Source of the DNA: a virus
Length of the DNA stretch: 64,000 nt
Direction: 5' to 3' (one strand)
Virus record (IMG/VR): IMGVR_UViG_3300023084_000004
This document shows, in pieces, positions 48,442 through 64,000 of this stretch. The notes under the pieces were generated by a model, which saw nothing but the letters and a program-made list of their open reading frames with translations, did not search any database and was not told the origin of the DNA. Every line of letters starts with the position of its first letter. Positions within the stretch are counted from its first letter, which is position 1. Made by a program: the position numbers and the translations under genes.

Positions 48442-48807
48442 ATGCTAAAACAATTCTTTAAAAAACTAGACAAACTCATGAAAGCTGGTCGTTTTCATAA
48501 AGTAGCTAATAAGTATTTAGCAACCTTTCTCATTGTTCCTTCATTAGCTTTTGCAGATGAAGTTAATATTCGTAATATTGACCATACAACTATAATGACT
48601 AAAGATGCAATGATCATATTAGACAAAAAAGCTGGTAAATTTTGGAATGCAAATTTAGATTGCGAACTTCCAATTACTACCGACTCTAAAGTCAATTTTA
48701 AGACTGCCACAAGGACAATCAAAAAAGGTTCAGAACTAACATTTATTATTGGTTCTAAACAAAAAGATGAGCACCTATGTAGAGTTATAACTCTAGCGGC
48801 GCTTTAA
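48442..48807 (+). CDS. Hypothetical exported-type protein (signal-peptide-like ...PSLAFA|DE; two Cys)
   Basis: AGGAG SD at 48430-48434 favours ATG 48442. Basic N-terminus, hydrophobic stretch, AxA cleavage-like site. Confidence 0.6.
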   Translation: MLKQFFKKLDKLMKAGRFHKVANKYLATFLIVPSLAFADEVNIRNIDHTTIMTKDAMIILDKKAGKFWNANLDCELPITTDSKVNFKTATRTIKKGSELTFIIGSKQKDEHLCRVITLAAL

Positions 48808-49319
48808 TCTCCAGTACTTCCTATTCCTCCAGCGCGGCTTGTTCGTTGCGCTGGTTTCTTACTTGTTTCTTGTATAGAATACGATAAATTCTTTTCTAAT
48901 TTACATTGAGCTAATCGCTCACCACTTACAACTCGTACTATTGAATCAGATATATTTGTTAAAAGTATATGTGTTTCATGGAAATAATCACTATCAATAA
49001 TACCTACACCATTTGTAAGAACTAAACCTTTTTTAGCTGCTACACTACTACGTACATACATTTTAAGTACGTGATCTGGTGGTATGTTAAAAATAAGACC
49101 AGTGGGAACAAATGCTCTATGAGCAGGATGAAGAAGAAACGCAGTTTCTCCTTGAATTTCTTTTGTTAATACTTCTGTTTCTCTATTAACAGAATTAAAT
49201 ACTCGAATCTTTTGTCCTACTTCAAAGAAAGATTCGACGTCAAAGCATGCGGACTCTTCGGTAGCGAGAGCCGGAAGTTTTACTTTTGGAGATGACTTAT
49301 AAACTAATAAAGTGCTCAT
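48804..49319 (-). CDS. dut: Trimeric dUTPase
   Basis: Motifs: ACFDV, RSS, GIIDSDY, GERLAQ, RAGGIGSTG. Confidence 0.93.
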   Translation of the reverse strand: MSTLLVYKSSPKVKLPALATEESACFDVESFFEVGQKIRVFNSVNRETEVLTKEIQGETAFLLHPAHRAFVPTGLIFNIPPDHVLKMYVRSSVAAKKGLVLTNGVGIIDSDYFHETHILLTNISDSIVRVVSGERLAQCKLEKNLSYSIQETSKKPAQRTSRAGGIGSTGD

Positions 49320-49422: not shown

Positions 49423-49451
49423 ATTATAATACATTCTTTACAGAATGTCAA
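49423..49451 (-). promoter_or_regulatory. Perfect sigma70-type promoter with palindrome in spacer
   Basis: TTGACA-17 bp-TATAAT; ACATTCT-TTAC-AGAATGT inverted repeat at 49431-49448. Confidence 0.85.
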
Positions 49452-51836: not shown

Positions 51837-52493
51837 TTAATTATAAGTTGACTTTGAATCAATTGCCACAAAATATGTGACACCTTTGCCCCTGAATTGT
51901 GAGATACCTTTTGCGCAAAGAGTAACCTCATAATCTAGCGGTAAGAGCTTCAAGTTATCAGTTTTAATAATAAACTTGAAGGTATCGTCAGTTTCACCGA
52001 TTTCAACGCCAAAGTCATCTGCGTTTTCATTCGAACTGTCGATAGCTTTCAGAAATACTTTGCCGCTTTCGCCTACAAAAGCAATTTCCGAAAATTGTAG
52101 TACCCCTGCTGCCTTCAATACAGAAGACAAATCTCCTTGTGATACATTCACAACAACATCTTCGGAAGGAAGAGTAATTTCCTTCTCTGGAGGAGTGTGT
52201 ATCATGGAGATATCGGCGTAGACGTACTTAGTACGACGTTTACCTTCAGAGATAATAAAGTATTTATCTTCGAATTCAACGTCGGGATCATTATAAAGAC
52301 TCAAAATTGAAAGAAATCTTGAAAGATCGTATACACATGCATCAGATGGAATTTCATCTGGAATATCTGCAATTGCAATTAGAGTCTTTTCTGGAGTGAT
52401 AGTCTTTAAAACATTACCTTCTTTAAACAAAATAGATTTGTTAATAGAGCTAAAGCTTTTCAAGACCGTCAAGGTTTCGTTAGAAAATTTCAT
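51837..52493 (-). CDS. gp45: Sliding clamp gp45
   Basis: MKFSNETLTVLKSFSSINKSILF...IYDL-type VYDLSRFLS; upstream of gp44/62. Confidence 0.93.
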   Translation of the reverse strand: MKFSNETLTVLKSFSSINKSILFKEGNVLKTITPEKTLIAIADIPDEIPSDACVYDLSRFLSILSLYNDPDVEFEDKYFIISEGKRRTKYVYADISMIHTPPEKEITLPSEDVVVNVSQGDLSSVLKAAGVLQFSEIAFVGESGKVFLKAIDSSNENADDFGVEIGETDDTFKFIIKTDNLKLLPLDYEVTLCAKGISQFRGKGVTYFVAIDSKSTYN

Positions 52494-52526: not shown

Positions 52527-52555
52527 ATTATATACCAAGTGAGGTTAAATGTCAA
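52527..52555 (-). promoter_or_regulatory. Perfect sigma70-type promoter for gp45 operon
   Basis: TTGACA-17 bp-TATAAT; TGGTATA-TTA-TATACCA palindrome (52521-52537) overlaps the -10. Confidence 0.85.
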
Positions 52556-52559
52556 CTGT

Positions 52560-53420
52560 TTATTTGCCTTTTGTATATGTTTTCTTATTAGAAGAAGCAT
52601 TGGCTGTTGCAGTAACACCAAGTTGTCCTAATGCTGCCATATTACCTTTAAAGATATATGTACCAACATGATTGATTTGCATCCAAGGACACATCCATAC
52701 TGAAAGTCCCATTTCTCTTGATTTCTTACAAAAGAAATAGTCTTCAGATAAGTACCTATTCGTTTCAGGATCAATAATACAATCAAAGAATGCTGTAATA
52801 TTTCGCGATCCATCAAAGTTTTCAGTACGCGCATGGTCTGGTTTGTATGATAGTTCTGGATAATTATCTCTAAATTTTTCAAGAGCTTCTCTTGGAATAA
52901 GCATAAATCCAGTTCCTGCTTCTGATACTTCAACAGGTTCACTTACTTTAAATTCTTTAGTTCCTTTTACAGGATTAAAAACAAAGTCAGAAGTAAATTG
53001 CTCAAGGTTAAAAGGATTTTCATTTGCGAATCCAAGTTCTGCAGCCTTTGCAATTTTTTCCCAAGCAATTGTTTTCTTAGGATAAGGACCAGTTACAATA
53101 TCATATTTTTCTGGATCAGAAGTTTGAATACCTAAAAGTGCTAACGCATCTCTAGGATTAAACCCAATATCACTATCAATAAACAATAAGTGAGTACAAT
53201 CAGATCTCATAAATTCATCTGCAATATAGTTACGAGCTCTTTGTACTAAACTTTCATTAAATAAGAAATAATATCTCATTGGTATTTCATATTTAGTACA
53301 TAACATACTCAAATCGTTAGTTGATTTTGTAAATAAACCTGAACATTGTCCACCATACATTGGTGCACCAACAAACAGTTTATAGTTTTTGAGATCAGTA
53401 ACGGGTATTTTAAGTTCCAT
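52560..53420 (-). CDS. GT-A-like (glycosyltransferase family 2-like) protein
   Basis: VGAPMYGG...ARNYIADEF...THLLFIDSDI (DxD), GTGFMLI, LSEDYFFC...HVG. Confidence 0.65.
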   Translation of the reverse strand: MELKIPVTDLKNYKLFVGAPMYGGQCSGLFTKSTNDLSMLCTKYEIPMRYYFLFNESLVQRARNYIADEFMRSDCTHLLFIDSDIGFNPRDALALLGIQTSDPEKYDIVTGPYPKKTIAWEKIAKAAELGFANENPFNLEQFTSDFVFNPVKGTKEFKVSEPVEVSEAGTGFMLIPREALEKFRDNYPELSYKPDHARTENFDGSRNITAFFDCIIDPETNRYLSEDYFFCKKSREMGLSVWMCPWMQINHVGTYIFKGNMAALGQLGVTATANASSNKKTYTKGK

Positions 53421-53429
53421 AATATATCC

Positions 53430-54032
53430 TTAATCTAAATCAAATTCTGTTCTGTGTAATAGTTGTAATCTGAGAGTATCGATAAGAATATCCCATGAAC
53501 TATCATGCTTTTTAAATGCTTCTTCCCATTCTGGTAATACGAAATCATTTCTTTCTGGAAGATTTAATTTTGCGTCAATCCACGTGCGGGTGTCACGCAC
53601 GAGATAGTATTTACAATATTCATAGAAATGTTGTTTTTTTCCTTGAGAATCAAAAAGACGTGTCATAATGACTGGATCAAAAGCATTTGATCTTGTCCAC
53701 CAATATTTAACATTTGAATCGATAATAAAATTATGAAAGTCATCTACAAATTCTTTTACAGTTAAATCAGTTTTTAAAGGTTTAACTCTATCACGTACTT
53801 CTTTATCTTGTGATTGCCAAAATTCAATAACAGAATTTTCTACTTTATAACCATAATTTTCTACTTGATCTTTTACTGAAAGTTTCCATCTTCGAACTGC
53901 ATTAATATCTTTAACAGTATAAGGTCGCTTTTCAAATCTATCAAAATCAAATACGAAAGCAGAAACATCAACTACAGCACAATCCATAGGTTCAGTGCCC
54001 ATAGTTTCAAAATCAAATATTAAATGTTTCAT
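53430..54032 (-). CDS. DEDDh 3'-5' exonuclease (DexA-like)
   Basis: LIFDFETMG...WWTRSNAFD...VRDTRTW...KHDSSWD. Confidence 0.75.
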   Translation of the reverse strand: MKHLIFDFETMGTEPMDCAVVDVSAFVFDFDRFEKRPYTVKDINAVRRWKLSVKDQVENYGYKVENSVIEFWQSQDKEVRDRVKPLKTDLTVKEFVDDFHNFIIDSNVKYWWTRSNAFDPVIMTRLFDSQGKKQHFYEYCKYYLVRDTRTWIDAKLNLPERNDFVLPEWEEAFKKHDSSWDILIDTLRLQLLHRTEFDLD

Positions 54033-55222
54033 AGGAATGCCTCAAGTGTATCATGCTTTTCAATATAGTCTGCGGTTTGAGTATTATTATACTGCATTAC
54101 GTAGTCTGTGTCAACCATTTGTAGCTCATTATTTAAATATTTTTTTACTTCTGTCGCCATGTCTGTTGCCGTTTGAACGGGAACATTTTGACAAATATGG
54201 TTGAAAGATTTTTTCGGATTGAGTAACTCGAAGTCCAAAGGTAAACCCATGATTGCCATAGCTTCTCTGTAATTAATATAACGATCATCGTCAGGATGAG
54301 TAAGTTTGACAGGATAATGCCCAACAAAAGCACCGATAAAGTCTTTAGGAACAATGGTACCTCTTCGCATAATGTTTCCACCAGCTTTGAGCTTCTCATA
54401 TCTGTATTTACATTTCTCAACTTCTTTTTCATATCCATGTTTTTCCATCCATTCGCCGACTTGAGCATAGTCATGCCCGTATCTTTCTATGTATGCATAT
54501 ACGCATTGACCTCTTGCACTTTGAGGTTCTACCATATCAGAAAATTCTTTATGAGTAATTCCACCATGAATATGTTCTAAAATATATTTGTAATATAAAT
54601 CATCTTGAGATGGAATTTTTGGATTAATACATTCAGTTTGGAAGTTAGAACCTCCTGCGCTTCTTATAACATCTTCAATAGCTGGTCGTTCTTTATTATA
54701 ATATGAAAGTAATGGAGTTTTTTCGCCGCGCCAAAAGAAATAGAATGAACGTTCTCTTACTTGAGATGAACCATGTAATAACGATTTAGTTCTATAAACA
54801 GTCATTGTATAACCTTGTTCAAGACCAATTCGTCTCATTTCATTTCGTATATTTTCACCAATCTTACCAGCAAAACCTGGAGCGTTTTCACCCCAAAATA
54901 CTTTTGGTTTAATTTCACCAAGAACATATTTTGCTGTTTCGATAAGCCATTTATTATTTGGATTATGATCTCCAAATCCTTGAGAAAGCATACTTAATCC
55001 AGCACAAGGACATACAGAAGATATTACATCAACACTCTCTGTAGGTTTCTCTCCTTTGTCTAGGACATAGTAAGGAACGTCGCTATAGTAATTAAGGATA
55101 TGAGAATCGTTGTCCTTGAAGGCCTCGTATGACATCATATAGGTTGGTTTTTCACCAAACGCATTGACTGATCCAATAGTTTCACCACCTATAAGTGGTA
55201 CGATAGAAGCGTGTTTAATCAT
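54029..55222 (-). CDS. DNA cytosine-C5 methyltransferase-like protein with atypical motif I
   Basis: Motif IV SVCPCAGLS, VI WGENAP, VIII SQVRER, IX YINYREAMAIMGLP, X CQNVPV. Motif I reads IVPLIGG instead of FxGxG. Confidence 0.75.
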   Translation of the reverse strand: MIKHASIVPLIGGETIGSVNAFGEKPTYMMSYEAFKDNDSHILNYYSDVPYYVLDKGEKPTESVDVISSVCPCAGLSMLSQGFGDHNPNNKWLIETAKYVLGEIKPKVFWGENAPGFAGKIGENIRNEMRRIGLEQGYTMTVYRTKSLLHGSSQVRERSFYFFWRGEKTPLLSYYNKERPAIEDVIRSAGGSNFQTECINPKIPSQDDLYYKYILEHIHGGITHKEFSDMVEPQSARGQCVYAYIERYGHDYAQVGEWMEKHGYEKEVEKCKYRYEKLKAGGNIMRRGTIVPKDFIGAFVGHYPVKLTHPDDDRYINYREAMAIMGLPLDFELLNPKKSFNHICQNVPVQTATDMATEVKKYLNNELQMVDTDYVMQYNNTQTADYIEKHDTLEAFL

Positions 55223-56222
55223 TTAAAAATTTACTCACTGATACTAATGATGAATTTATGACTTGGTGCATATCTAAATAGACATACATTCCGCATCTTC
55301 CTATAAAAGTGACTTTAGAGTTTTCGATATCTCGATATTGCTTGTATCTTTCACGATTAATACCATCTACATCATTTATGGGATAATATCTTTCCATGTT
55401 ATTGTCTTTATAATCACATGGTTCCTCATAAGTTACTGTAGTGGTTAAGTCGTTTTTACCATGTTCTGGAATGTTTTTCCATTCTGTTACTCGAGTATAT
55501 GGTCCATCGTGTGTAAAATTGACTGTTGCGGTAGGAAGCACTCTTGTTTGTGGAATACTCATTGTATGAAACTTGAGTGATCTGTAAGGTAATTCTCCAA
55601 AGCAATAATCATAATATACATCAATTGGCATAGAATTAAATACGTGATCGTATTCATCTTCCATACTCTTGTTAAACTCTGTTGAAAGTTGCACTGTTAT
55701 ATTCTCATGATTTAAAATATTTTCAAAAAGTTTTGTATAGCCATCTTTTGGCATATACTGATATTTATCTTTCGGAAAATAGTATTCGTTTAGATCATCA
55801 CGAATAGGTACTCTTGCAATAATACCAGGATTTAATTCATCGAGCTCTTTACCCCACATTTTTCTTGTATAAGGTCTAAAGAAAATATCAAGCACATTTT
55901 CTTCACCAACAATTTCTTTAGTTTCTTTATTTACAGGTAAAGTAACATATTGTCCATCATTTAATAAGGCTTTTACTTTATGCTTATATTCTACCCATTC
56001 ACCATATTGCATTAACCAGTTTACAACTTTTTCATTATCTGTATGAAATAAGTGTGGACCATATTTGTGTACACGAATACCATTTTCATCAGTATAATCA
56101 TAAGCATTACCTGCAATATGATTTCTTAAATCAATAACATGTACTTTATGACCAGCATTTGCAAGTTCTCTTGCGTGAACTGCACCCGCAAATCCTGCGC
56201 CAACTACTAAATAATTTTTCAT
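55215..56222 (-). CDS. glf: UDP-galactopyranose mutase
   Basis: VVGAGFAG...HIAGNAYD...HKYGPHLFHT...PYTRKMWG...LPYRSL...YTRVTEWK...RYYP...GRCGMYVYLDMHQVI. Confidence 0.93.
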   Translation of the reverse strand: MKNYLVVGAGFAGAVHARELANAGHKVHVIDLRNHIAGNAYDYTDENGIRVHKYGPHLFHTDNEKVVNWLMQYGEWVEYKHKVKALLNDGQYVTLPVNKETKEIVGEENVLDIFFRPYTRKMWGKELDELNPGIIARVPIRDDLNEYYFPKDKYQYMPKDGYTKLFENILNHENITVQLSTEFNKSMEDEYDHVFNSMPIDVYYDYCFGELPYRSLKFHTMSIPQTRVLPTATVNFTHDGPYTRVTEWKNIPEHGKNDLTTTVTYEEPCDYKDNNMERYYPINDVDGINRERYKQYRDIENSKVTFIGRCGMYVYLDMHQVINSSLVSVSKFLND

Positions 56223-57310
56223 GCGTTTAATACTATTTCAAATTCACTTCTTGTTTTTTCTTTATCTAGAGGATGATGCTTATATAGTGCATCGCGTTGA
56301 CCTTGAGCAAATTCTTGTAATTGTTTCACATTCATAGCTTCAATATCTTCAGCAATACGTGTAGATAAGTATTCATCCTGATAGTAAACAAATAATTCTT
56401 TAGGATCACCAATAAGAATACTTCCTGCATCAGCAACCTGTAAAGGCCTTGCTCTCCACCAACCAGATCCTGAGTGGAAATATCCAGGCATTAAACATCC
56501 CCATTGTTCTGCATATACTTTACACATTTGGTCTTCAGTAAGTCTTTCTGATTTTTCTTCACCGCGCTTTGCACCATAGATATTCATTGGCCACTCTTGA
56601 ATGTTTTGAAGTTTCAACCATTTTCGAGTTTTCTTTTGTACTAACGAAGCAAAGTTCCATTCTAATTTTTTATCTTTTACTTCTACTCCACCACCAAAAA
56701 GTGTTGATACACCAGAAAGAAAATCATTATCTGGAGTACGATTATAGTGATAAGGGTTAGGATTGAAACGATATATTTTATCAGGATTCCAACCGAGATT
56801 GAGCAAACTTAAATCACCAAGATCAAATGCAGAAATTAACAATCTGTTTTCTTTATTTAGCATAATATCACATGCTGCTACAAAATTGTCTTTGTATTTT
56901 TTCAGAGTGTTAATATCATATTGTGTACATTGAAGATCTAAAAGATATTGTCTAAATGCTTTGTCTTCTGGTTCATCAAGGTTTCCACGAAATCCTTGAA
57001 TACCACCATAAATCTGATCAACCTGCCAATCGTCAAATGCAAGAATAGCATCTGGTCTTTGAGATAGTGCGTAACATCCAGAATATAAATTTTGACAGAA
57101 AGATTGTGGACTATGCATATAAAAGATTACTTCATCATAGTGTGAAATATCTTCGCCTAATGCTACTTCTCTTTGCTCAACTTCATATCCCATTTCTCTA
57201 AGACAACGTAATACTGCATATTGAGAAGGTACTACTTGTAATTGCTGTCTTAGAAAAAAGTCTTCAGTACACTGAGCTTTGTTCATTCCAGTGATTAATA
57301 TTTTTTTCAT
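56219..57310 (-). CDS. Putative GT-B-fold glycosyltransferase (363 aa)
   Basis: N-terminal KILITG beta-strand. C-terminal WGCLMPGY...WWRARPLQVADAGSILIG resembles the GT-B nucleotide-sugar-binding half. Sandwiched by ATGA overlaps between the epimerase and glf. Confidence 0.5.
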   Translation of the reverse strand: MKKILITGMNKAQCTEDFFLRQQLQVVPSQYAVLRCLREMGYEVEQREVALGEDISHYDEVIFYMHSPQSFCQNLYSGCYALSQRPDAILAFDDWQVDQIYGGIQGFRGNLDEPEDKAFRQYLLDLQCTQYDINTLKKYKDNFVAACDIMLNKENRLLISAFDLGDLSLLNLGWNPDKIYRFNPNPYHYNRTPDNDFLSGVSTLFGGGVEVKDKKLEWNFASLVQKKTRKWLKLQNIQEWPMNIYGAKRGEEKSERLTEDQMCKVYAEQWGCLMPGYFHSGSGWWRARPLQVADAGSILIGDPKELFVYYQDEYLSTRIAEDIEAMNVKQLQEFAQGQRDALYKHHPLDKEKTRSEFEIVLNA

Positions 57311-58089
57311 AATTTAACTATATCCTCAAGTGTGTGTTTTGGATTCATAAACATAGAATTGAAAGGTACTTCAGATTTTGCATTATCACCTTCTCTTCTT
57401 TCTCCATATTTTACTTCAAATAATGGACCGTTTACTCTTAAAAATTCTTCAATGTATTCTTTAACTGTATAAGACTGTCCTGATCCAAGCGGTTCATAAT
57501 CTGACATTGCAGCCGGTTCATAAATTGCTTTTACAATTGCATCTGTAAGATCTTCTACGTGAACATAATCTCTTACTGGAGTACCATCTTTAGTATCATA
57601 ATCAGATCCAAAAATTGTAAATGTTCCTGATTGAATTGCATTTTGAGTTGCTGCATATAATCCTTCAGGATTGTTAGGTACTCCACCTCCAACATTATAA
57701 AATCTAAAAATCGTATATTCTTTACAAAGTTGTTTTACAATATCTTCTGCAACTACTTTTGATCTTGCATAAGGTGATGTTGGATCAAATGCCGCTCCTG
57801 TTGAAGCAAATATAAATTTAGCATTTGGAAATGCATCAATTACATTTTTAGTTCCATTAATGTTAGTATTATAATATTCAAATGGATTCTTTACGCTTTC
57901 ACCAACTTTAACTAATGCTGCTAAATGTACAACTACATCTACTGTTGGATTAGTAGGATTAGAATATTTTGTAATATCCCAATCTTTAATATCGTAAAAG
58001 ACCGCTCGAACATTGCGTTCACTTAACTTTTTTCTTAATACTGAACCGATATATCCATCGGCACCTGTTACTACAACTTTTTTATTCAT
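57307..58089 (-). CDS. NAD-dependent nucleotide-sugar epimerase (GalE-like, extended SDR)
   Basis: VVVTGADGYIGS, VVHLAA, FASTGA, YARSK, RFYNVGG, DGTPVRDYVHVEDL, YGERREGD. Confidence 0.85.
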   Translation of the reverse strand: MNKKVVVTGADGYIGSVLRKKLSERNVRAVFYDIKDWDITKYSNPTNPTVDVVVHLAALVKVGESVKNPFEYYNTNINGTKNVIDAFPNAKFIFASTGAAFDPTSPYARSKVVAEDIVKQLCKEYTIFRFYNVGGGVPNNPEGLYAATQNAIQSGTFTIFGSDYDTKDGTPVRDYVHVEDLTDAIVKAIYEPAAMSDYEPLGSGQSYTVKEYIEEFLRVNGPLFEVKYGERREGDNAKSEVPFNSMFMNPKHTLEDIVKL

Positions 58090-58097
58090 AATTTTCT

Positions 58098-58126
58098 ATT
58101 ATAACACAATTAAACTGAAATGTCAA
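58098..58126 (-). promoter_or_regulatory. Perfect sigma70-type promoter directly upstream of the epimerase operon
   Basis: TTGACA (58126-58121)-17 bp-TATAAT (58103-58098). Confidence 0.85.
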
Positions 58127-58562
58127 CAAATTCGTAATCAACTAATGCTTCTTTAAAAAGCTCTTTTGTATTATCAAAAGATTCAATCCATCTTTCTGGA
58201 ACATCTATCATTGAAGGCATTACAATACGTTTAGTACCAACTTGAATAACACCTTTTGCACATTCTGAACAAACTGGTAATCCCCAAACATATAATGTAC
58301 TATTATTTAGTGAAATTCCATTATAAGTCGCATTATATATTGCGTTTTGTTCAGCATGAACTACAAGTTTATACTTTTCTTCTCTATTTTCATATCGATC
58401 TAAAGTATCTTCAATGTTGCGTGGAAAGCCATTATATCCAGTTGCAAGAATGCGTCTTTCGTCAGAAACGAAAACTGCACCAATTTGTTTACTTGGATCT
58501 TTACTCCATGTTGAAATTTCTCTTGCTAAACCGAGAAATCTTTTATCCCACTTGACGCTCAT
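58110..58562 (-). CDS. cd: dCMP deaminase
   Basis: KDPSKQIGAV...GYNGFP...VVHAEQNAI...PVCSECAK. Start probably MSVKWD (58562). Confidence 0.9.
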   Translation of the reverse strand: MSVKWDKRFLGLAREISTWSKDPSKQIGAVFVSDERRILATGYNGFPRNIEDTLDRYENREEKYKLVVHAEQNAIYNATYNGISLNNSTLYVWGLPVCSECAKGVIQVGTKRIVMPSMIDVPERWIESFDNTKELFKEALVDYEFVDISV

Positions 58563-59217
58563 TAATGTAGTCTTGTATAAAGTTGAAATGTCTTTCGTAG
58601 ACATGAAAATTAGAAGCGGTCCAAATTAAATCACCAACTTCTACACCTAGATCATCTGCAAGTTTTGATTGAACATAACGTGCCCATGCATAATCATTAT
58701 TATAACCAAAAACAGCATCATTAGATCTCATAATATAATGAGATATTAATTGCTTATTTCGAATATAGAATGTATTTGCGTAAGTACACATAAAGTCATT
58801 CATATTATTAGCATTATAATCTGTATGCATACTTGGACGATTGTAGATCATTGTTGCTCTACGAGAGTTATGATTCCTAGATAATTCTCTTAAAACGTTT
58901 TCGTATTGATTACCATTTTCTTTAGTAAAAATACACCAACCATAATTTGAATTAATGAATCCATTATCATCAGAAACATCTAACCAAATTTGTGGAGTTT
59001 TACCAGGAATATCATTAACGTTTAATGAACAGCTTTTATACCATTGAAGTTCACGTTCAATATATTCATAAGCTGGTTTACGAATAACATAATCCTCGTC
59101 AGCAATAAATGTCGCACCAAGTACTTCAATTGTTTTAGCACCTGTACGATCAATAACCCAATCACCTTGAAGATAATCGGTTACAATTTGATTACGTATA
59201 TCTTTTACTTTTAACAT
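58543..59217 (-). CDS. gp42: dCMP hydroxymethylase (thymidylate-synthase fold, T4 gp42-like)
   Basis: Collinear with T4 gp42 as recalled: DRTGAKTIE, RELQWY, DIPGKTPQIW, INSNYGW, SRRATMIYNRPSM, DFMCT (catalytic Cys), MRSND..FGYNNDYAW (Asp that selects dCMP rather than the TS Asn), HVYERHF. Confidence 0.9.
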   Translation of the reverse strand: MLKVKDIRNQIVTDYLQGDWVIDRTGAKTIEVLGATFIADEDYVIRKPAYEYIERELQWYKSCSLNVNDIPGKTPQIWLDVSDDNGFINSNYGWCIFTKENGNQYENVLRELSRNHNSRRATMIYNRPSMHTDYNANNMNDFMCTYANTFYIRNKQLISHYIMRSNDAVFGYNNDYAWARYVQSKLADDLGVEVGDLIWTASNFHVYERHFNFIQDYINERQVG

Positions 59218-59420
59218 TAAAACTCCTCAGCCCATTCTGCAAAATCCTCATGCAGAAAATCAAGATCATCTACAAAAGTTCCATAGGATTCCATAGCATC
59301 ATCAATAGATTCACCTTCTTCAAGCTCATAATATTTGACCCAGAATTTACCAGCAACTGCAACTTCTTCTTCATTTGCTTCTGGATCTACTACTTCAATA
59401 ACACAAACTTTTCTAGGCAT
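59217..59420 (-). CDS. Acidic hypothetical protein (67 aa)
   Basis: ORF track; one-base overlaps with both neighbours. Confidence 0.6.
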   Translation of the reverse strand: MPRKVCVIEVVDPEANEEEVAVAGKFWVKYYELEEGESIDDAMESYGTFVDDLDFLHEDFAEWAEEF

Positions 59421-59674
59421 TAAATGGTCTCCAATAGTGTTTCAATATCATCAAGTTCAGCTACAACTGCGGGTAGATTTTGTTTATGATAAATCCTAGC
59501 CATTTTACGTAGAATATTTTTAGGAATATCTACATCTTCGGCTAAAGCATTAATTGCTTCTTTTTGAAAAGAACGTTCGGCTTCTACTCGAGTAAATGAA
59601 TTACTCATTTCTTCCATAGCACCTTTAATTCTTTTTTTATCTTCATCACTTGAAGGAATAATCACATTACTCAT
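59420..59674 (-). CDS. dsbA: T4-type double-stranded DNA-binding protein DsbA
   Basis: EEMSNS...KEAINALAEDVDIPKNILRKMARIYHKQN...ELDDIETL parallels T4 DsbA (LYHKDN) as recalled. This is not the bacterial disulfide oxidase. Confidence 0.75.
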   Translation of the reverse strand: MSNVIIPSSDEDKKRIKGAMEEMSNSFTRVEAERSFQKEAINALAEDVDIPKNILRKMARIYHKQNLPAVVAELDDIETLLETI

Positions 59675-60018
59675 TATTTAATTCTCCTATTGTATACATC
59701 ATTATTAGTATTTTGTCCTGGAATTTTACCACGACAATATGAAACAAAAAATGCAGAATAATTAATTAAATCTTTTGCTGAATCTTCGAGTGATTCGAAA
59801 TTTGGATTATAGTCATCACTTTGCATTGCTTCCATAACTGATTTCATACGGAGCATTTTTGCATTCATAACATCATAGATTGAATCAATACCACGAGGGT
59901 AGTAATCTGCTTGTTGAACAGTTGAATTTGGATTTTGATAATCGCGAGATTTTTTCAACTGTAAGTCGATACATTCTTGAAGAACGTTGACTGCTTCGGG
60001 ATTGGTTTGTTTACTCAT
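59674..60018 (-). CDS. Nucleotide-modification-associated domain 1 (DUF1599-like, all-alpha NTP-PPase-like)
   Basis: LQLKKSRDY...KMLR...ESLEDSAKDLINY pattern. Confidence 0.7.
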   Translation of the reverse strand: MSKQTNPEAVNVLQECIDLQLKKSRDYQNPNSTVQQADYYPRGIDSIYDVMNAKMLRMKSVMEAMQSDDYNPNFESLEDSAKDLINYSAFFVSYCRGKIPGQNTNNDVYNRRIK

Positions 60019-60041
60019 AAGATCTCCATAATATAGACACT

Positions 60042-60071
60042 ATTATACCACACTTTTTCGCAAAAGTAAAC
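60042..60071 (-). promoter_or_regulatory. T4-early-type promoter GTTTAC-...-TATAAT
   Basis: AAAAAAACAGTTTACTTTTGCGAAAAAGTGTGGTATAAT: TTTACT -35, 17-bp spacer, extended TG, A-rich UP element. Confidence 0.8.
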
Positions 60072-60089
60072 TGTTTTTTTCAATTATTT

Positions 60090-60323
60090 TTACGGAAGTC
60101 TTGGTGCTTCAGGTGTGTGAAAGTACTTATCAATCATTGCAATTTTATCATTATAATCTGCAATAATAGCAAGTTCCTTTTCAATTGTTTCCATAACGTC
60201 TGGATGTTCTGCGACACCCACATTATTTTCTAATAGAACTTCAATATTAATTCTATGTTTAGCAACGTGTGCTTCAAAATGCTGTTTTGATACAGCAAGT
60301 AATTCTTTTCTAAATGTTTTCAT
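60090..60323 (-). CDS. Conserved hypothetical protein (77 aa)
   Basis: KHRINIEVLL...VGVAEHPDVMETIEKEL pattern seen in aquatic T4-like phages (recalled). Confidence 0.7.
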   Translation of the reverse strand: MKTFRKELLAVSKQHFEAHVAKHRINIEVLLENNVGVAEHPDVMETIEKELAIIADYNDKIAMIDKYFHTPEAPRLP

Positions 60324-60332
60324 AATATATCC

Positions 60333-60752
60333 TTAAAATAAATCTTGAAAGATACCATGATTATCTTCATGGCTTGGAGCAGTCCACCCCTCAGGTTTTA
60401 CAAGATCTGGTACGCCCAGTGGATTGGGTCTTGTTTCTTTAACACCTACTTCTTTTGCCATATTTGCTTTGAGAACTGTATCCCAAGCTTTATGTGCATC
60501 AATACCATAGGCATCTAATGTACCAATTGCAACAACACAAAGATCAATTAAACCATCTACGATTTCTTCTGCATCTTCATTATTGAATGCTTTTCTTGTT
60601 TCGTCGAGTTCTTCTTGGAGAAAGTTAATTCTAAACTTTAAAAACTCTTTAAGCTTTTCATCGTCTTGCATACTATATCTAACCCATTCACGAGTTTGAT
60701 ATTTAGTCTGCATGTCATGAATATCTTGTACCCAATCTTTACTCATTTTCAA
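60333..60752 (-). CDS. MazG/PRA-PH-like nucleoside triphosphate pyrophosphohydrolase
   Basis: FLQEELDE...EEIVDGLIDL...WDTVLKANMAK (EExxE...ExxD metal ligands). Confidence 0.8.
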   Translation of the reverse strand: MKMSKDWVQDIHDMQTKYQTREWVRYSMQDDEKLKEFLKFRINFLQEELDETRKAFNNEDAEEIVDGLIDLCVVAIGTLDAYGIDAHKAWDTVLKANMAKEVGVKETRPNPLGVPDLVKPEGWTAPSHEDNHGIFQDLF

Positions 60753-61280: not shown

Positions 61281-61309
61281 ATTATAACACAGTTTATTTG
61301 AAATGTCAA
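61281..61309 (-). promoter_or_regulatory. Perfect sigma70-type promoter
   Basis: TTGACA-17 bp-TATAAT; shares GTTGACATTTCA and TGTGTTATAAT with the 58098 promoter. Confidence 0.85.
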
Positions 61310-62079
61310 CCTTTTTCTTTAAATAAAGATTCGACATTAAAGTTTTCATATTGTTCTGGCATTGGCATTGGTTTTACCCAAGTGATTTCTCTATTATATG
61401 GATTATATGTTTCACCTTTAAAATAATCTTCCATACAAACAAGTTCACCAGGAAACTCTTTATACATTTTAGCCATTTCTTCATACCGTTCAACAAGACC
61501 ACGAATTAATGGAAATGCTCTTTCGTTCTCACCAAAGTTTGGTTGATCTTCTAAATCAACAGTAATTCTATAAGGTTCATCTTCTTTACCCATTGTTGCT
61601 AAATGAATTTGTCTTTGATTTTCAGTCATGTTTCGAAGATAATCTCTTACATTTCTTTTAAATCCAGTACCACCAAAGTTTCCATCTTGTCTTACTGCAA
61701 CCCAACTTTCACATTGAGCTCTAAAATCTCTTCTATAAAGATAGTAGATTCTATCTACTGCATTCAATATTCTACTTACATGTTCTTCATTTCTTACTTG
61801 AATTGGAATTAATTTAAAACAACATGGGTGTCCGGCTTCAAGTTGTTCTATAAATCTTTCATGACTTATACAAGCTTCTCTTTCTACAGGATCCTGATAT
61901 TTTTCCATCTCTTTCCAAGGTGAATTAATCAATTGCCATTTTGCTCTTGCTTCACCTAGATCATAAGGTCTTGGATCACTAAACATTTCACCTTTATAAG
62001 GCACACCATATTCTTCTGCTTTTTTTAATGTAAACGACGTACTCGCTGTACGATAATTTGCGATAATTGCTATTCTCAT
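61306..62079 (-). CDS. Putative Stf0-like sulfotransferase / P-loop protein (257 aa)
   Basis: IIANYRTASTS (5'-PSB loop, cf. RSGST), GEMF, YLYRRDFRAQCESW (3'-PB, cf. RxDxxxQAVS). Confidence 0.5.
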   Translation of the reverse strand: MRIAIIANYRTASTSFTLKKAEEYGVPYKGEMFSDPRPYDLGEARAKWQLINSPWKEMEKYQDPVEREACISHERFIEQLEAGHPCCFKLIPIQVRNEEHVSRILNAVDRIYYLYRRDFRAQCESWVAVRQDGNFGGTGFKRNVRDYLRNMTENQRQIHLATMGKEDEPYRITVDLEDQPNFGENERAFPLIRGLVERYEEMAKMYKEFPGELVCMEDYFKGETYNPYNREITWVKPMPMPEQYENFNVESLFKEKG

Positions 62080-64000
62080 GTGAAAAAATCCTCGATTGTA
62101 TTTACTTTTTCTGATTTCCAGCCAAGAGGTTCGATAATGTTCTCTACTGGACTGAGAAATACTTTTGAGAATTGTGTATCATAATCAATATACTTGTCTA
62201 AGCCGAGTTCTTTCGGAAGTACACCAGGAAATGAAATCATATTCTCACGTATTGGATTCGGTACTTTAAGGTATAAGAATTTAATCTTATCACCTGACTG
62301 AATCTTTTCATATTTCTTATTCAACTTATGCTGTTCAAGGAAGTGATTATAAAGAATACATCCTCTTACATGCATAGGGCAACCTTTTTTGTATAGGTTG
62401 ACTTTGTCCATATATTTATTGATATTGTCTGTGCCTGAAGTTTTAGCAATTTCTTCAGGTGGAAGTTTTCTAAATTCAGTACGGAAGTTAGCAATAAATT
62501 TTTGTGTTGCTTCTTCATCACCACCGAGTATTACTTCAAATATATCTTTCATCTTATCACGACAAACTTGTGGTGTCGATGATCTTACTGATTCAAGACC
62601 AGTAACAGAAACTTTTGGTTTTTCATAATGAACACCTTCACTATTAAGTGTATTCAAAATGTATCTTTTCTTTGCGATAAAGATAGAACGATCAGTAATC
62701 TTTTCTCGTTTCATTACCATCGCATTACGATAAGCACCCATGTCAGATCGAAGCTTTTCATAACCAGCTTCAATAACTTGTTCAATCTTTGTAGAACAAA
62801 CTTTGTCTAAGAATTCTTCACCTTGCTTACGGTCAATGTCTACTGTACCAAATACTTCTTTTACTAATGGACTAAAGTTTACATAAATCGAATCGGTATC
62901 GATATACACAATATAATCTTTATTTTCTGTGTTGAGTATCTTATTGAGATATTCATTTACAGATTTTTGAGCATATCGAATACTTAATTGACCAGATGTA
63001 GTAATTGCTTCCGCCATTTCGTTAATATAATATAGGAAGTAGATATTTGCTGTTGCGCCATAAAGAGAGTTCATAGCAATCTTGATTGACATTTGAGAAT
63101 TATGAAGTTGATTCATTTCTCGTTTGAGTCTTTTCTTTTCAGCAGGATCTGTTTCAATCTCGAATTGCTGTTCGACTGCAATCATTTGTTTCTTAATTAC
63201 AGAACGATTATTATAGTATTCGTCAATGATACTTGGAATAATACCAACCTTATCGTTTCTAAAACAGACACCATTTGCAGCAACAGACATATTTGGATTT
63301 GTATTTTTAAAATCACCATTGAGTACCATGTCTTGTGTTACTACTTCTCTTTCCTGCGGCATATATGTTTCAGGTGACATATTGTATTGCAACATAAGAT
63401 GTGGATATAGAGAGTTTAAGTCAAATGATACAACCCACGGATACATTCCAGGTTTTGGATCTTTTACATAACCACCTACAAGTTCACCTTGACGAATTCC
63501 AGGAGAGTCTTTAATAGGAGGCACAACTTTATCTTTAATTAATCTACGATAGATAGTTGATTCCCAAATTCCTACAGTACCAAACGCATCACCAAAGTTT
63601 ACACCACCACCATAAGCAACTGTCATAACTAACGCGAGAAGAGATGTTTCTTCTTCCATTCTTTGAATGAGGTGTGTATCTTTTAAGTTATAGTCAAGAT
63701 AGAGTTGTGGGTTTTCATCATATAATGCAGTCAATGAGCCATATTCAGAATAATCAAGTTTCTTTTCACCAAGAATAACATGAGCAATATGGTCAAGTTT
63801 ATATGATTCTTGTGGACCATACTTATAACCAAACTTTTTAAAAGCATCCATGTAGTCAATTACAGACATACCAGAAATTTTGTACGTTGATTGTACTTTA
63901 CCAAATACTTCACGACGTCTTTGATCAATCAATTTCCAAGGTGAAAGTTTCTTTGCAGATTCTTCACCAAGTAGTCTTATGATACGTGTTACGATATATT
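62076..64000 (-). CDS. gp43: Family B DNA polymerase gp43 (5' part outside window)
   Basis: SFDLNSLYP, KIAMNSLYGA, YIDTDSIY, KKRY, GLESVRSSTP. The frame stays open past the track's TTG to the edge (YIVTRIIRLLGEESAKKLSPWK). Confidence 0.97.
   Translation of the reverse strand, partial: YIVTRIIRLLGEESAKKLSPWKLIDQRRREVFGKVQSTYKISGMSVIDYMDAFKKFGYKYGPQESYKLDHIAHVILGEKKLDYSEYGSLTALYDENPQLYLDYNLKDTHLIQRMEEETSLLALVMTVAYGGGVNFGDAFGTVGIWESTIYRRLIKDKVVPPIKDSPGIRQGELVGGYVKDPKPGMYPWVVSFDLNSLYPHLMLQYNMSPETYMPQEREVVTQDMVLNGDFKNTNPNMSVAANGVCFRNDKVGIIPSIIDEYYNNRSVIKKQMIAVEQQFEIETDPAEKKRLKREMNQLHNSQMSIKIAMNSLYGATANIYFLYYINEMAEAITTSGQLSIRYAQKSVNEYLNKILNTENKDYIVYIDTDSIYVNFSPLVKEVFGTVDIDRKQGEEFLDKVCSTKIEQVIEAGYEKLRSDMGAYRNAMVMKREKITDRSIFIAKKRYILNTLNSEGVHYEKPKVSVTGLESVRSSTPQVCRDKMKDIFEVILGGDEEATQKFIANFRTEFRKLPPEEIAKTSGTDNINKYMDKVNLYKKGCPMHVRGCILYNHFLEQHKLNKKYEKIQSGDKIKFLYLKVPNPIRENMISFPGVLPKELGLDKYIDYDTQFSKVFLSPVENIIEPLGWKSEKVNTIEDFFT

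Follow-up and report, generated by a model that had tools for sequence, protein, structure and literature searches.

The 64,000-nucleotide stretch of DNA analysed here, to the whole of which "the window" and all positions refer, is part of the IMG/VR virus record IMGVR_UViG_3300023084_000004, a linear record of 101 kb with approximately 33% G+C and an estimated completeness of approximately 47%. The window represents a replication and nucleotide-metabolism module of an uncultured, distant marine T4-like phage. Between the genes for the DNA polymerase gp43 and the sliding clamp gp45 it carries a block of genes, all on the minus strand, which very probably constitutes a module for the glycosylation of 5-hydroxymethylcytosine (hmC) in DNA. 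Galactofuranose on hmC is the best and, in our view, the probable reading of this block: the enzymes could be identified, and their substrates, acceptor and product are predicted on the basis of the sequence.

In the proposed pathway a gp42-type enzyme would convert dCMP to 5-hydroxymethyl-dCMP (5hm-dCMP), as indicated by homology and by its active-site signature. A dCMP deaminase and a MazG-like pyrophosphatase would shape the nucleotide pools, and hmC would be polymerised in place of cytosine. Family membership and conserved residues suggest that a GalE-like epimerase and a UDP-galactopyranose mutase (UGM; Glf) turn host UDP-glucose via UDP-galactopyranose into UDP-galactofuranose, while gene linkage suggests that a GT-B glycosyltransferase shaped like the β-glucosyltransferase (BGT) of T4 attaches the furanose to the hydroxymethyl group of hmC residues in DNA. 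A second glycosyltransferase (GT-A) may add a second sugar or serve the remaining hmC. The product would be galactofuranosyl-hmC DNA resistant to restriction and to modification-dependent nucleases. An earlier note on this DNA had already proposed that the phage makes its own furanose donor and attaches it to hmC. This core of the proposal is backed by comparative genomics (hmC-type gp42, conserved GT-B/Glf cassette), whereas arabinose proved to be a weak analogy and Glf alone not to be diagnostic.

The gp42-type dCMP hydroxymethylase, or 5hm-dCMP synthase (58543-59217, 224 amino acids), is a homologue of thymidylate synthase (TS). Its match to the T4 dCMP hydroxymethylase (dCH; PDB 1b49) has an E-value of 9e-67, compared with approximately 1e-12 for ordinary thymidylate synthases and approximately 4e-12 for the "thymidylate synthase" chains 9iqu/9iqc, which we take to be the 5-hydroxycytosine (5hoC) synthase of HY126. 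The catalytic cysteine and the dCMP-specific aspartate named in the earlier note were both recovered, the motifs FMCT and NNDY aligning to Cys148 (catalytic) and Asp179 of T4, the latter being the dCMP-specifying residue which corresponds to N177D in E. coli ThyA. With the signature SDFMCT / MRSND / NDY the protein has an acidic residue at ThyA position L143 and Asp at D169 and N177; Asp at these three positions is shared by 27 related loci, Aeromonas phage 25 and Erwinia FBB1. Since Asn at position 169 (D169N) marks the 5hoC synthases (PMC13326640), the window TS homologue is by the published signature a 5hm-dCMP synthase, i.e. a gp42 of the hydroxymethylase type with 5hm-dCMP as its predicted product. 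The alternative identity of a 5hoC synthase was rejected on account of the D169 signature and of the E-values, the match to T4 dCH being far stronger than that to the HY126 enzyme.

The gp42 gene is accompanied by genes for a dCMP deaminase (cd; 58110-58604; PF00383, 6e-18; phrog_174, 5e-41) and for a MazG-like NTP pyrophosphohydrolase (60333-60752; PF01503, 3e-9; phrog_671, 6e-23). The latter is kept upstream of gp42 in 19 loci and represents a candidate dCTP-clearing enzyme. Furthermore, a protein of 114 amino acids (59674-60018) was found to be a conserved partner of MazG and gp42, being kept in 24 loci. It had no Pfam match at E ≤ 0.01, so that its earlier label "DUF1599-like" is without Pfam support. 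A single PHROG profile, phrog_18404, is matched by both the MazG-like protein (positions 51-139) and the 114-aa protein (169-250). As these are adjacent halves of the profile, the two proteins are perhaps fused in other phages and may hence form a functional pair.

With regard to the sugar donor, the block encodes a short GalE-like epimerase of the SDR type with 260 amino acids (57307-58089; PF01370, 5e-29), whose top PDB matches are GalE structures (1e-26) and which retains the GxxGxxG motif and the Ser/Thr-Tyr-Lys triad (S/T...YxxxK). The Glf (55215-56222; PF03275, 1e-54) matches its Pfam family over the full profile length (2-203 of 203) with 185.9 bits at a cut-off of 26.3, carries the FAD-binding Rossmann domain PF13450 (1e-17) and resembles the solved mutases 3hdq (1e-73) and 1wam (2e-69). 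In the alignment with 1wam it keeps the residues corresponding to Y155, W160, R174, Y185, R280, Y314, Y349 and D351. These include the substrate-binding Arg and Tyr residues R174, R280, Y155, Y185, Y314 and Y349 in the numbering of the Klebsiella pneumoniae Glf.

Neither the 363-aa nor the 286-aa protein encoded in the block had a sequence match in Pfam, NCBIfam or PDB, and family HMM profiles of both compared with PDB sequences gave nothing meaningful, for which reason their folds are predicted ones. The 363-aa protein (56219-57310) belongs to a phage-specific GT-B family ("GT363", phrog_14998) and is the candidate hmC galactofuranosyltransferase. Its AF2 model (pLDDT 82) has T4 BGT as a joint top match (Z 15.3-15.4, 302-308 of 351 residues aligned, rmsd 4.4-4.5), followed by the T4 α-glucosyltransferase (AGT; Z 13.4-13.7) and the HY126 transferase (Z 12.7-12.9). 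Among 1.84 billion metagenomic representatives the family forms 596 clusters at 50% identity, and in the ESM Atlas these clusters are solely viral. Ten distant members of the family had no Pfam family either. In addition, metagenomic proteins of 830-1400 residues (P0137, P0174, P0178, P0185, P0195) were found to end with the C-terminal half of a GT-B of this family.

The 286-aa protein (52560-53420; phrog_1574) is predicted to adopt a GT-A fold (AF2 pLDDT 70.5, Z 15-16). Its D82-x-D84, the DxD metal/nucleotide motif, is invariant in 13 sequences, and a Foldseek match to STIV A197 was obtained (2e-7). The galactofuranosyltransferase GlfT2 is one of many GT-A enzymes among its fold matches. The C-terminal tail of the protein is disordered and rich in lysine (e.g. 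KKKK in many relatives), which would suit the binding of a polyanion such as DNA.

The linkage of these genes was analysed in a first set of 31 loci, obtained by an IMG/VR search with the GT-B and scored for gene presence by a tblastn matrix. The conserved order in this set is MazG, 114-aa protein, gp42, (cd), GT-B, C5-methyltransferase-like protein, GT-A, gp45, gp44, and the core of gp42, GT-B, C5-methyltransferase-like protein and GT-A recurs in about 30 viral loci. Glf was confined to L003-L009 and the window, where it always follows GT-B directly, and the epimerase, which immediately precedes GT-B, to L005-L008 and the window; both are accessory inserts. On the maximum-likelihood tree of GT-B the presence of Glf requires a single change (support 90/97; 92% of bootstrap trees), compared with four on the tree of the adjacent C5-methyltransferase-like gene, where well-supported branches force at least two. 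Thus, the GT-B allele travels with Glf and not with the phage backbone.

This result also bears on another explanation, according to which hmC would be glycosylated with a pyranose (glucose or galactose) from the host pool, while Glf would be otherwise used or only a second sugar, added by GT-A, would be a furanose. A clade of 13 rows in the first set lacks Glf and retains gp42 and both transferases, so that a phage-encoded Glf is not required for these enzymes to function, and the fold match between GT-A and GlfT2 points in the same direction, though GlfT2 is only one among many. However, it is the GT-B allele that changes together with Glf, and the GT-A and C5-methyltransferase-like genes do not; moreover, the genes beside Glf in Aeromonas phage 25 and Erwinia FBB1 include a GT-B of the window type, and no match to the 286-aa transferase was detected in the flanks of L043-L052. 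Taking these observations together, the use of a host-pool pyranose seems unlikely.

A galactofuranose donor is further suggested by a second set of loci, for which a search with a Glf alignment yielded 226 viral relatives, the best 80 of which were kept. GT-B lies directly upstream of Glf in 64 of the 80. The 43 GT-B/Glf loci whose upstream flank reaches 4.2 kb or more were regarded as informative; gp42 was present in 41 of them and a TET/JBP dioxygenase in the other two (L106, L107). The clade nearest to the window, in which gp44 is 81-85% identical, has the order gp42, cd, GT-B, Glf, C5-methyltransferase-like protein, exonuclease, GT-A, gp45. Together with three cultured lineages, the 43 of 43 informative loci support the view that the GT-B/Glf pair is a conserved cassette which travels with an enzyme making a 5-hydroxymethyl-pyrimidine.

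Among cultured phages, Aeromonas phage 25 and Erwinia FBB1 (Straboviridae) both encode Glf directly followed by a GT-B homologue (28-29% identity, E 1e-35 to 1e-37) as well as an hmC-type gp42. The cultured phages Aes508 and phiAS4 are further carriers of gp42, GT-B and Glf. In the actinophage DSL-LC01 the genes for GT-B, Glf, another GT-B and MazG follow one another, and a TS homologue of the hmC type is encoded as well. In the complete genome of phage C48C1 (Kyanoviridae) no TS homologue was found; the gene preceding its GT-B/Glf pair encodes a Tet_JBP domain instead (PF12851, 3e-17; L001, 6522-9969). The operon order TET/JBP dioxygenase, (epimerase), GT-B, Glf is shared by C48C1, L106 and L107. 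No relative of the C5-methyltransferase-like protein of the window was found in C48C1, the sole annotated DNA methyltransferase of which is an N6-adenine enzyme of the D12 class. An operon of this type could comprise a thymine dioxygenase feeding a base-J-like galactofuranosyl-5-hydroxymethyluracil.

Gordonia phage Forza encodes a member of the GT-B family (gp130; L127, 3404-4468) and an hmC-type TS homologue. No Glf was found in this phage in a search with Corynebacterium as positive control. Hosts of the order of Gordonia make UDP-galactofuranose natively, and a host-supplied donor would fit this case. A distant member of the family, with 105 bits to the family profile, was detected in Morganella phage Rgz1 (gp40; L125, 3941-5008). 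It lies beside the polymerase between an arabinose-5-phosphate (Ara5P) isomerase and an NDP-sugar enzyme, i.e. within an arabinofuranose cluster of the RB69 type, and approximately 5 kb away a second TS homologue reads MRSQN, the D169N signature of 5hoC synthases. RB69 and T4 themselves have no member of the GT-B family. In every informative case the family adjoins an enzyme which places OH or CH2OH on C5 of a pyrimidine, and with the exception of Gordonia phage Forza every carrier checked has genes for the synthesis of a furanose nucleotide sugar.

Several observations weigh against galactofuranosyl-hmC as the product in the window phage. The epimerase, about 75 residues shorter than GalE, reaches 147 bits with the GalE equivalog TIGR01179 (cut-off 262), and Glf reaches 288.2 bits with TIGR00031 (cut-off 303.75) and misses about 35 residues of the helical domain. 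As both enzymes fall below their NCBIfam equivalog cut-offs and have internal deletions, their activity and substrate are uncertain. The nearest relatives of the window lack the epimerase. Glycogen synthase ties with T4 BGT as a fold match of GT-B and other GT-B enzymes score equally, while the hhalign comparison of the GT-B family with T4 BGT gave a probability of 2.9%. Furthermore, the 101-kb fragment, with its completeness of about 47%, yielded neither a dNMP kinase nor a gp56-type dCTPase; a motif search of the record for a gp1-type dNMP kinase revealed solely a 144-aa P-loop ORF outside the window. Due to this incompleteness the missing gp1-type kinase carries no weight. Finally, 14 of the 80 Glf loci of the second set have neither gp42 nor a GT-B of the window type and are situated in glycan clusters with GT8, GT25, O-methyltransferase and radical-SAM genes.

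Based on the failed profile comparison the likeness of GT-B to T4 BGT is one of fold and not of family. An HMM of the family (A1) gave 1.4 bits on T4 BGT. Membership in GT63 (PF09198) was dropped in view of the low hhalign probability and the lack of a Pfam match, and only the likeness in fold was retained. The 14 Glf loci in glycan clusters indicate that Glf alone is not diagnostic and that phage Glf also serves other glycans. The earlier note had suggested examining the co-occurrence of glf and gp42: it holds for the GT-B/Glf pair in 41 of the 43 informative loci and fails for these 14. A strict co-occurrence was therefore rejected, also in view of C48C1 with its TET/JBP gene in place of a TS homologue. 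In locus L094 (4196-13728) and 13 similar loci, Glf is 68-69% identical and forms part of an extended cluster with genes for GT8 and GT25 transferases, O-methyltransferases acting on sugars, a radical-SAM/SPASM enzyme and another epimerase.

The same 14 loci, with no gp42 within 10 kb and with GT25 genes annotated as "LPS biosynthesis", would be compatible with sugar genes that decorate virion proteins or remodel glycans of the host surface, their proximity to nucleotide genes in the window being incidental. It would also agree with such a role that neither transferase is linked by sequence to a proven DNA glycosyltransferase. On the other hand, the GT-B/Glf pair is accompanied by gp42 or TET/JBP in all of the informative loci and keeps such company in four unrelated phage backbones, a member of the GT-B family lies within a DNA arabinosylation cluster of the RB69 type, the family is confined to viruses, and the block in the window stands under early promoters between the polymerase and the clamp. 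A target other than DNA thus appears improbable to us.

For DNA as the acceptor, the nature of the furanose has to be considered as well. UDP-xylose 4-epimerases belong to the GalE family, and UDP-arabinopyranose is turned over weakly by bacterial Glf, so that the epimerase might act as a UDP-xylose 4-epimerase and Glf might contract UDP-L-arabinopyranose, L-arabinofuranose being the sugar transferred. The score of the epimerase below the GalE equivalog cut-off and the family member in the arabinofuranose cluster of Rgz1 could be read in this sense. However, none of the enzymes of the known phage route (Ara5P isomerase, kinase/uridylyltransferase, HAD phosphatase) is present here, no UDP-glucose dehydrogenase which could supply UDP-xylose was found in the fragment, and all UGM substrate residues are conserved in Glf. 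Hence, L-arabinofuranose seems very unlikely. An arabinose route of the RB69 type was likewise rejected, as the block encodes no Ara5P isomerase, HAD phosphatase or uridylyltransferase.

Galactofuranosylation of hmC in DNA would also agree with the expression signals of the block, which is driven by early-type perfect promoters. A perfect promoter was defined as TTGACA-N17-TATAAT (sigma-70-type). The window contains five of them, compared with 0.09 expected by chance. All five are minus-strand sites of the module, located at 49423, 52527-52555 (ahead of gp45), 54086-54114 (inside the 3' end of the C5-methyltransferase-like gene), 58098-58126 (upstream of the epimerase) and 61281-61309. The -10 hexamer of the promoter at 58098 ends 8 nt short of the epimerase ATG and no Shine-Dalgarno sequence was seen at this start (58087-58126), so that the epimerase is translated either from a leaderless mRNA or from a transcript that starts further upstream. 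The promoter at 54086 serves the exonuclease and GT-A genes; it lies approximately 50 nt upstream of the ATG of the exonuclease, which has the Shine-Dalgarno sequence GAGG.

All genes that the earlier note had named between gp43 and gp45 were found on the minus strand where it had placed them, including the dCMP deaminase, MazG-like, GalE-like, GT-B-like, Glf, C5-methyltransferase-like, exonuclease and GT-A-like genes. It had described the last six as one unit between the promoters at 58098 and 52527, with overlaps of 4-8 nt among the first five genes. The six genes do stand in a row, the overlaps are 4, 4, 8 and 4 nt followed by a gap of 9 nt, and both promoters are real; a third one lies inside the unit, however. 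The row does not form one functional unit either, as Glf and the epimerase are accessory genes, most relatives in the first set lack the exonuclease, which is served by a promoter of its own, and the C5-methyltransferase-like gene belongs to a wider core.

The exonuclease (53430-54032) is a DEDD 3'-5' exonuclease resembling Rv2179c and DexA (PF16473, 1e-15; phrog_255, 2e-31). In the first set it occurs in the window only, and over both sets it is restricted to the clade nearest to the window. It is a separately promoted neighbour of the module.

The C5-methyltransferase-like protein (C5-METHYLTRANSFERASE-like protein; 54029-55222) resembles C5-cytosine methyltransferases (PF00145, 5e-16, covering only profile positions 58-324), and its gene is part of the wider conserved core. 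Within the module this gene shows the highest conservation, with 61-67% identity compared with 45-57% for GT-B in most loci, and it has 2339 homologues in metagenomes. The motifs IV (PCAGLS), VI (WGENAP), VIII (QxRxR; QVRER) and X (CQNVP) are invariant. Motif I is degenerate, the N-terminus reading IVPLIGGE instead of FxGxG in 15 of 15 sequences, and inspection by eye showed no conserved acidic residue where motif II would be expected. The score with TIGR00675 is 24.6 bits at a cut-off of 100.65. Cyanophage S-TIM5 (L041) and Pseudoalteromonas phage XG4 (L042) have distant copies in the neighbourhood of dCMP-specific TS homologues. The C-terminus DTLEAFL of the protein resembles the tail NTIEDFFT with which gp43 of the window ends.

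A broader view of the GT-B family, which we put forward tentatively and hold to have slightly less than an even chance, would describe it as a virus-only family of DNA furanosyltransferases. Its members would always stand beside a maker of C5-OH or C5-CH2OH pyrimidines (gp42-type, D169N-type or TET/JBP) and a route to a furanose donor (Glf or Ara5P), the product in the window phage being galactofuranosyl-hmC. The C5-methyltransferase-like protein, with its rebuilt cofactor site and polymerase-like tail, would then perform a further post-replicative reaction on such DNA.

The T4-type glycosylation of hmC is textbook knowledge, and the window block resembles the T-even glucosyl-hmC pathway in several respects. 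The gp42 is orthologous to that of T4 (approximately 50% identity, same catalytic Cys and Asp), a dCMP deaminase is present, gp42 adjoins gp43 as in T4, and GT-B matches T4 BGT in size and shape. In contrast, the transferases of the window are not sequence homologues of T4 AGT and BGT, and the phage encodes makers of the donor (GalE-like, Glf) whereas T4 draws on host UDP-glucose. The window furthermore adds GT-A and the C5-methyltransferase-like protein, and homologues of gp56 and gp1 were not found in the fragment.

A phage Glf supplying UDP-galactofuranose has been proposed computationally for galactosyl-5-hydroxycytosine in Rhizobium phage RL38J1 (PMC13326640, NAR 2026). The novelty which the earlier note ascribed to galactofuranosyl DNA was thus overstated. 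The system of RL38J1 and the Pootjesviridae is similar in that UDP-galactofuranose from Glf would serve a C5-oxygenated cytosine made by a TS homologue and in that several transferases are encoded. However, the base there is 5hoC, made by a D169N synthase and bearing an ether link directly at C5, whereas the synthase of the window keeps Asp169, and the window Glf is 36% identical to that of Rhizobium/Agrobacterium phages.

RB69, DLP3, HY126 and others carry arabinofuranosyl-5-hydroxycytosine, and the RB69-type donor is made from ribulose-5-phosphate via Ara5P isomerase, a kinase/uridylyltransferase and a phosphatase without any Glf (PMC13326640). These phages resemble the window phage as T4-like phages with a furanose on a modified cytosine and a cluster beside gp43, and the distant GT-B family member of Morganella phage Rgz1 lies in such a cluster. 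They differ in the base (5hoC), the sugar (D-arabinose) and the Glf-free donor route, and RB69 lacks the GT-B family of the window. As this route runs without Glf, arabinose is a weak analogy for the window phage, and the remark of the earlier note on arabinose in RB69-type phages is outdated.

Glycosyltransferases which modify 5hmC in DNA and depend on an epimerase have been demonstrated experimentally in a study (bioRxiv 10.1101/2023.12.21.572611) that mentions neither a mutase nor a furanose. The phage clusters of C5-methyltransferase, TET (5mYOX) and glycosyltransferase genes, subclass II (PMC8256090; bioRxiv 10.1101/2023.12.21.572611), likewise pair a sugar-nucleotide-tailoring enzyme with a transferase for 5hmC DNA, and the TET/JBP rows of C48C1, L106 and L107 are similar to them. 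However, hmC arises there post-replicatively from 5-methylcytosine at specific sites, whereas here it would be made pre-replicatively as a nucleotide.

Our literature search found no description of a furanose on hmC. Galactofuranosyl-hmC, if confirmed, would be a new natural DNA base and the second furanose decoration of phage cytosine besides arabinofuranosyl-5-hydroxycytosine. It would imply that phages acquire enzymes of donor synthesis and thereby vary the sugar attached to hmC, probably evading nucleases tuned to glucosyl-hmC. It would also answer a question raised for Aeromonas phages 25, 31 and 44RR, for which a review of 2010 lists gene 42 and no glucosyltransferase and leaves open how hmC DNA is protected (PMC2993671). 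A search for literature on DNA glycosylation in Aeromonas phages or galactofuranose in phage DNA found only PMC13326640 and this review. Since phage 25 has the Glf/GT-B pair, the prediction is testable on an existing isolate. As seen from the 226 related viral Glf loci and the 596 GT-B clusters, marine and freshwater viromes commonly contain the module, the enzymes of which could be tools for labelling 5hmC.

With regard to the origin of the phage, the 8.4-kb region matched none of 50,697 phage records in a megablast search, and the identity of gp43 to cyanomyoviruses is at most 47%. The minus-strand order from 64.0 to 50.5 kb begins with gp43, a 257-aa orphan, a 95-aa protein, glutaredoxin, the MazG-like protein, a 77-aa protein and the 114-aa protein, followed by a DsbA-like regulator, a 67-aa protein, the TS homologue, the dCMP deaminase and the SDR epimerase. 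It continues with the 363-aa protein, Glf, the C5-methyltransferase-like protein, the DEDD exonuclease, the 286-aa protein, gp45, a 96-aa protein and gp44. Of gp43 the C-terminal 640 amino acids are encoded in the window (62076-63998; PF00136, 5e-32), the 5' end lying beyond it, and gp45 is located at 51837-52493 (PF09116, 5e-17). The 257-aa ORF directly after gp43 (61306-62079), close to a perfect promoter region, had no match in Pfam or PHROG. A 171-aa protein of the dUTPase family (48804-49319), encoded after regA, showed no detectable similarity to proteins of T4 and Aeromonas phage 25 in a test of its relation to gp56; it matches phrog_135 and TIGR00576 (92.5 bits) and is possibly a dUTPase or dCTPase.

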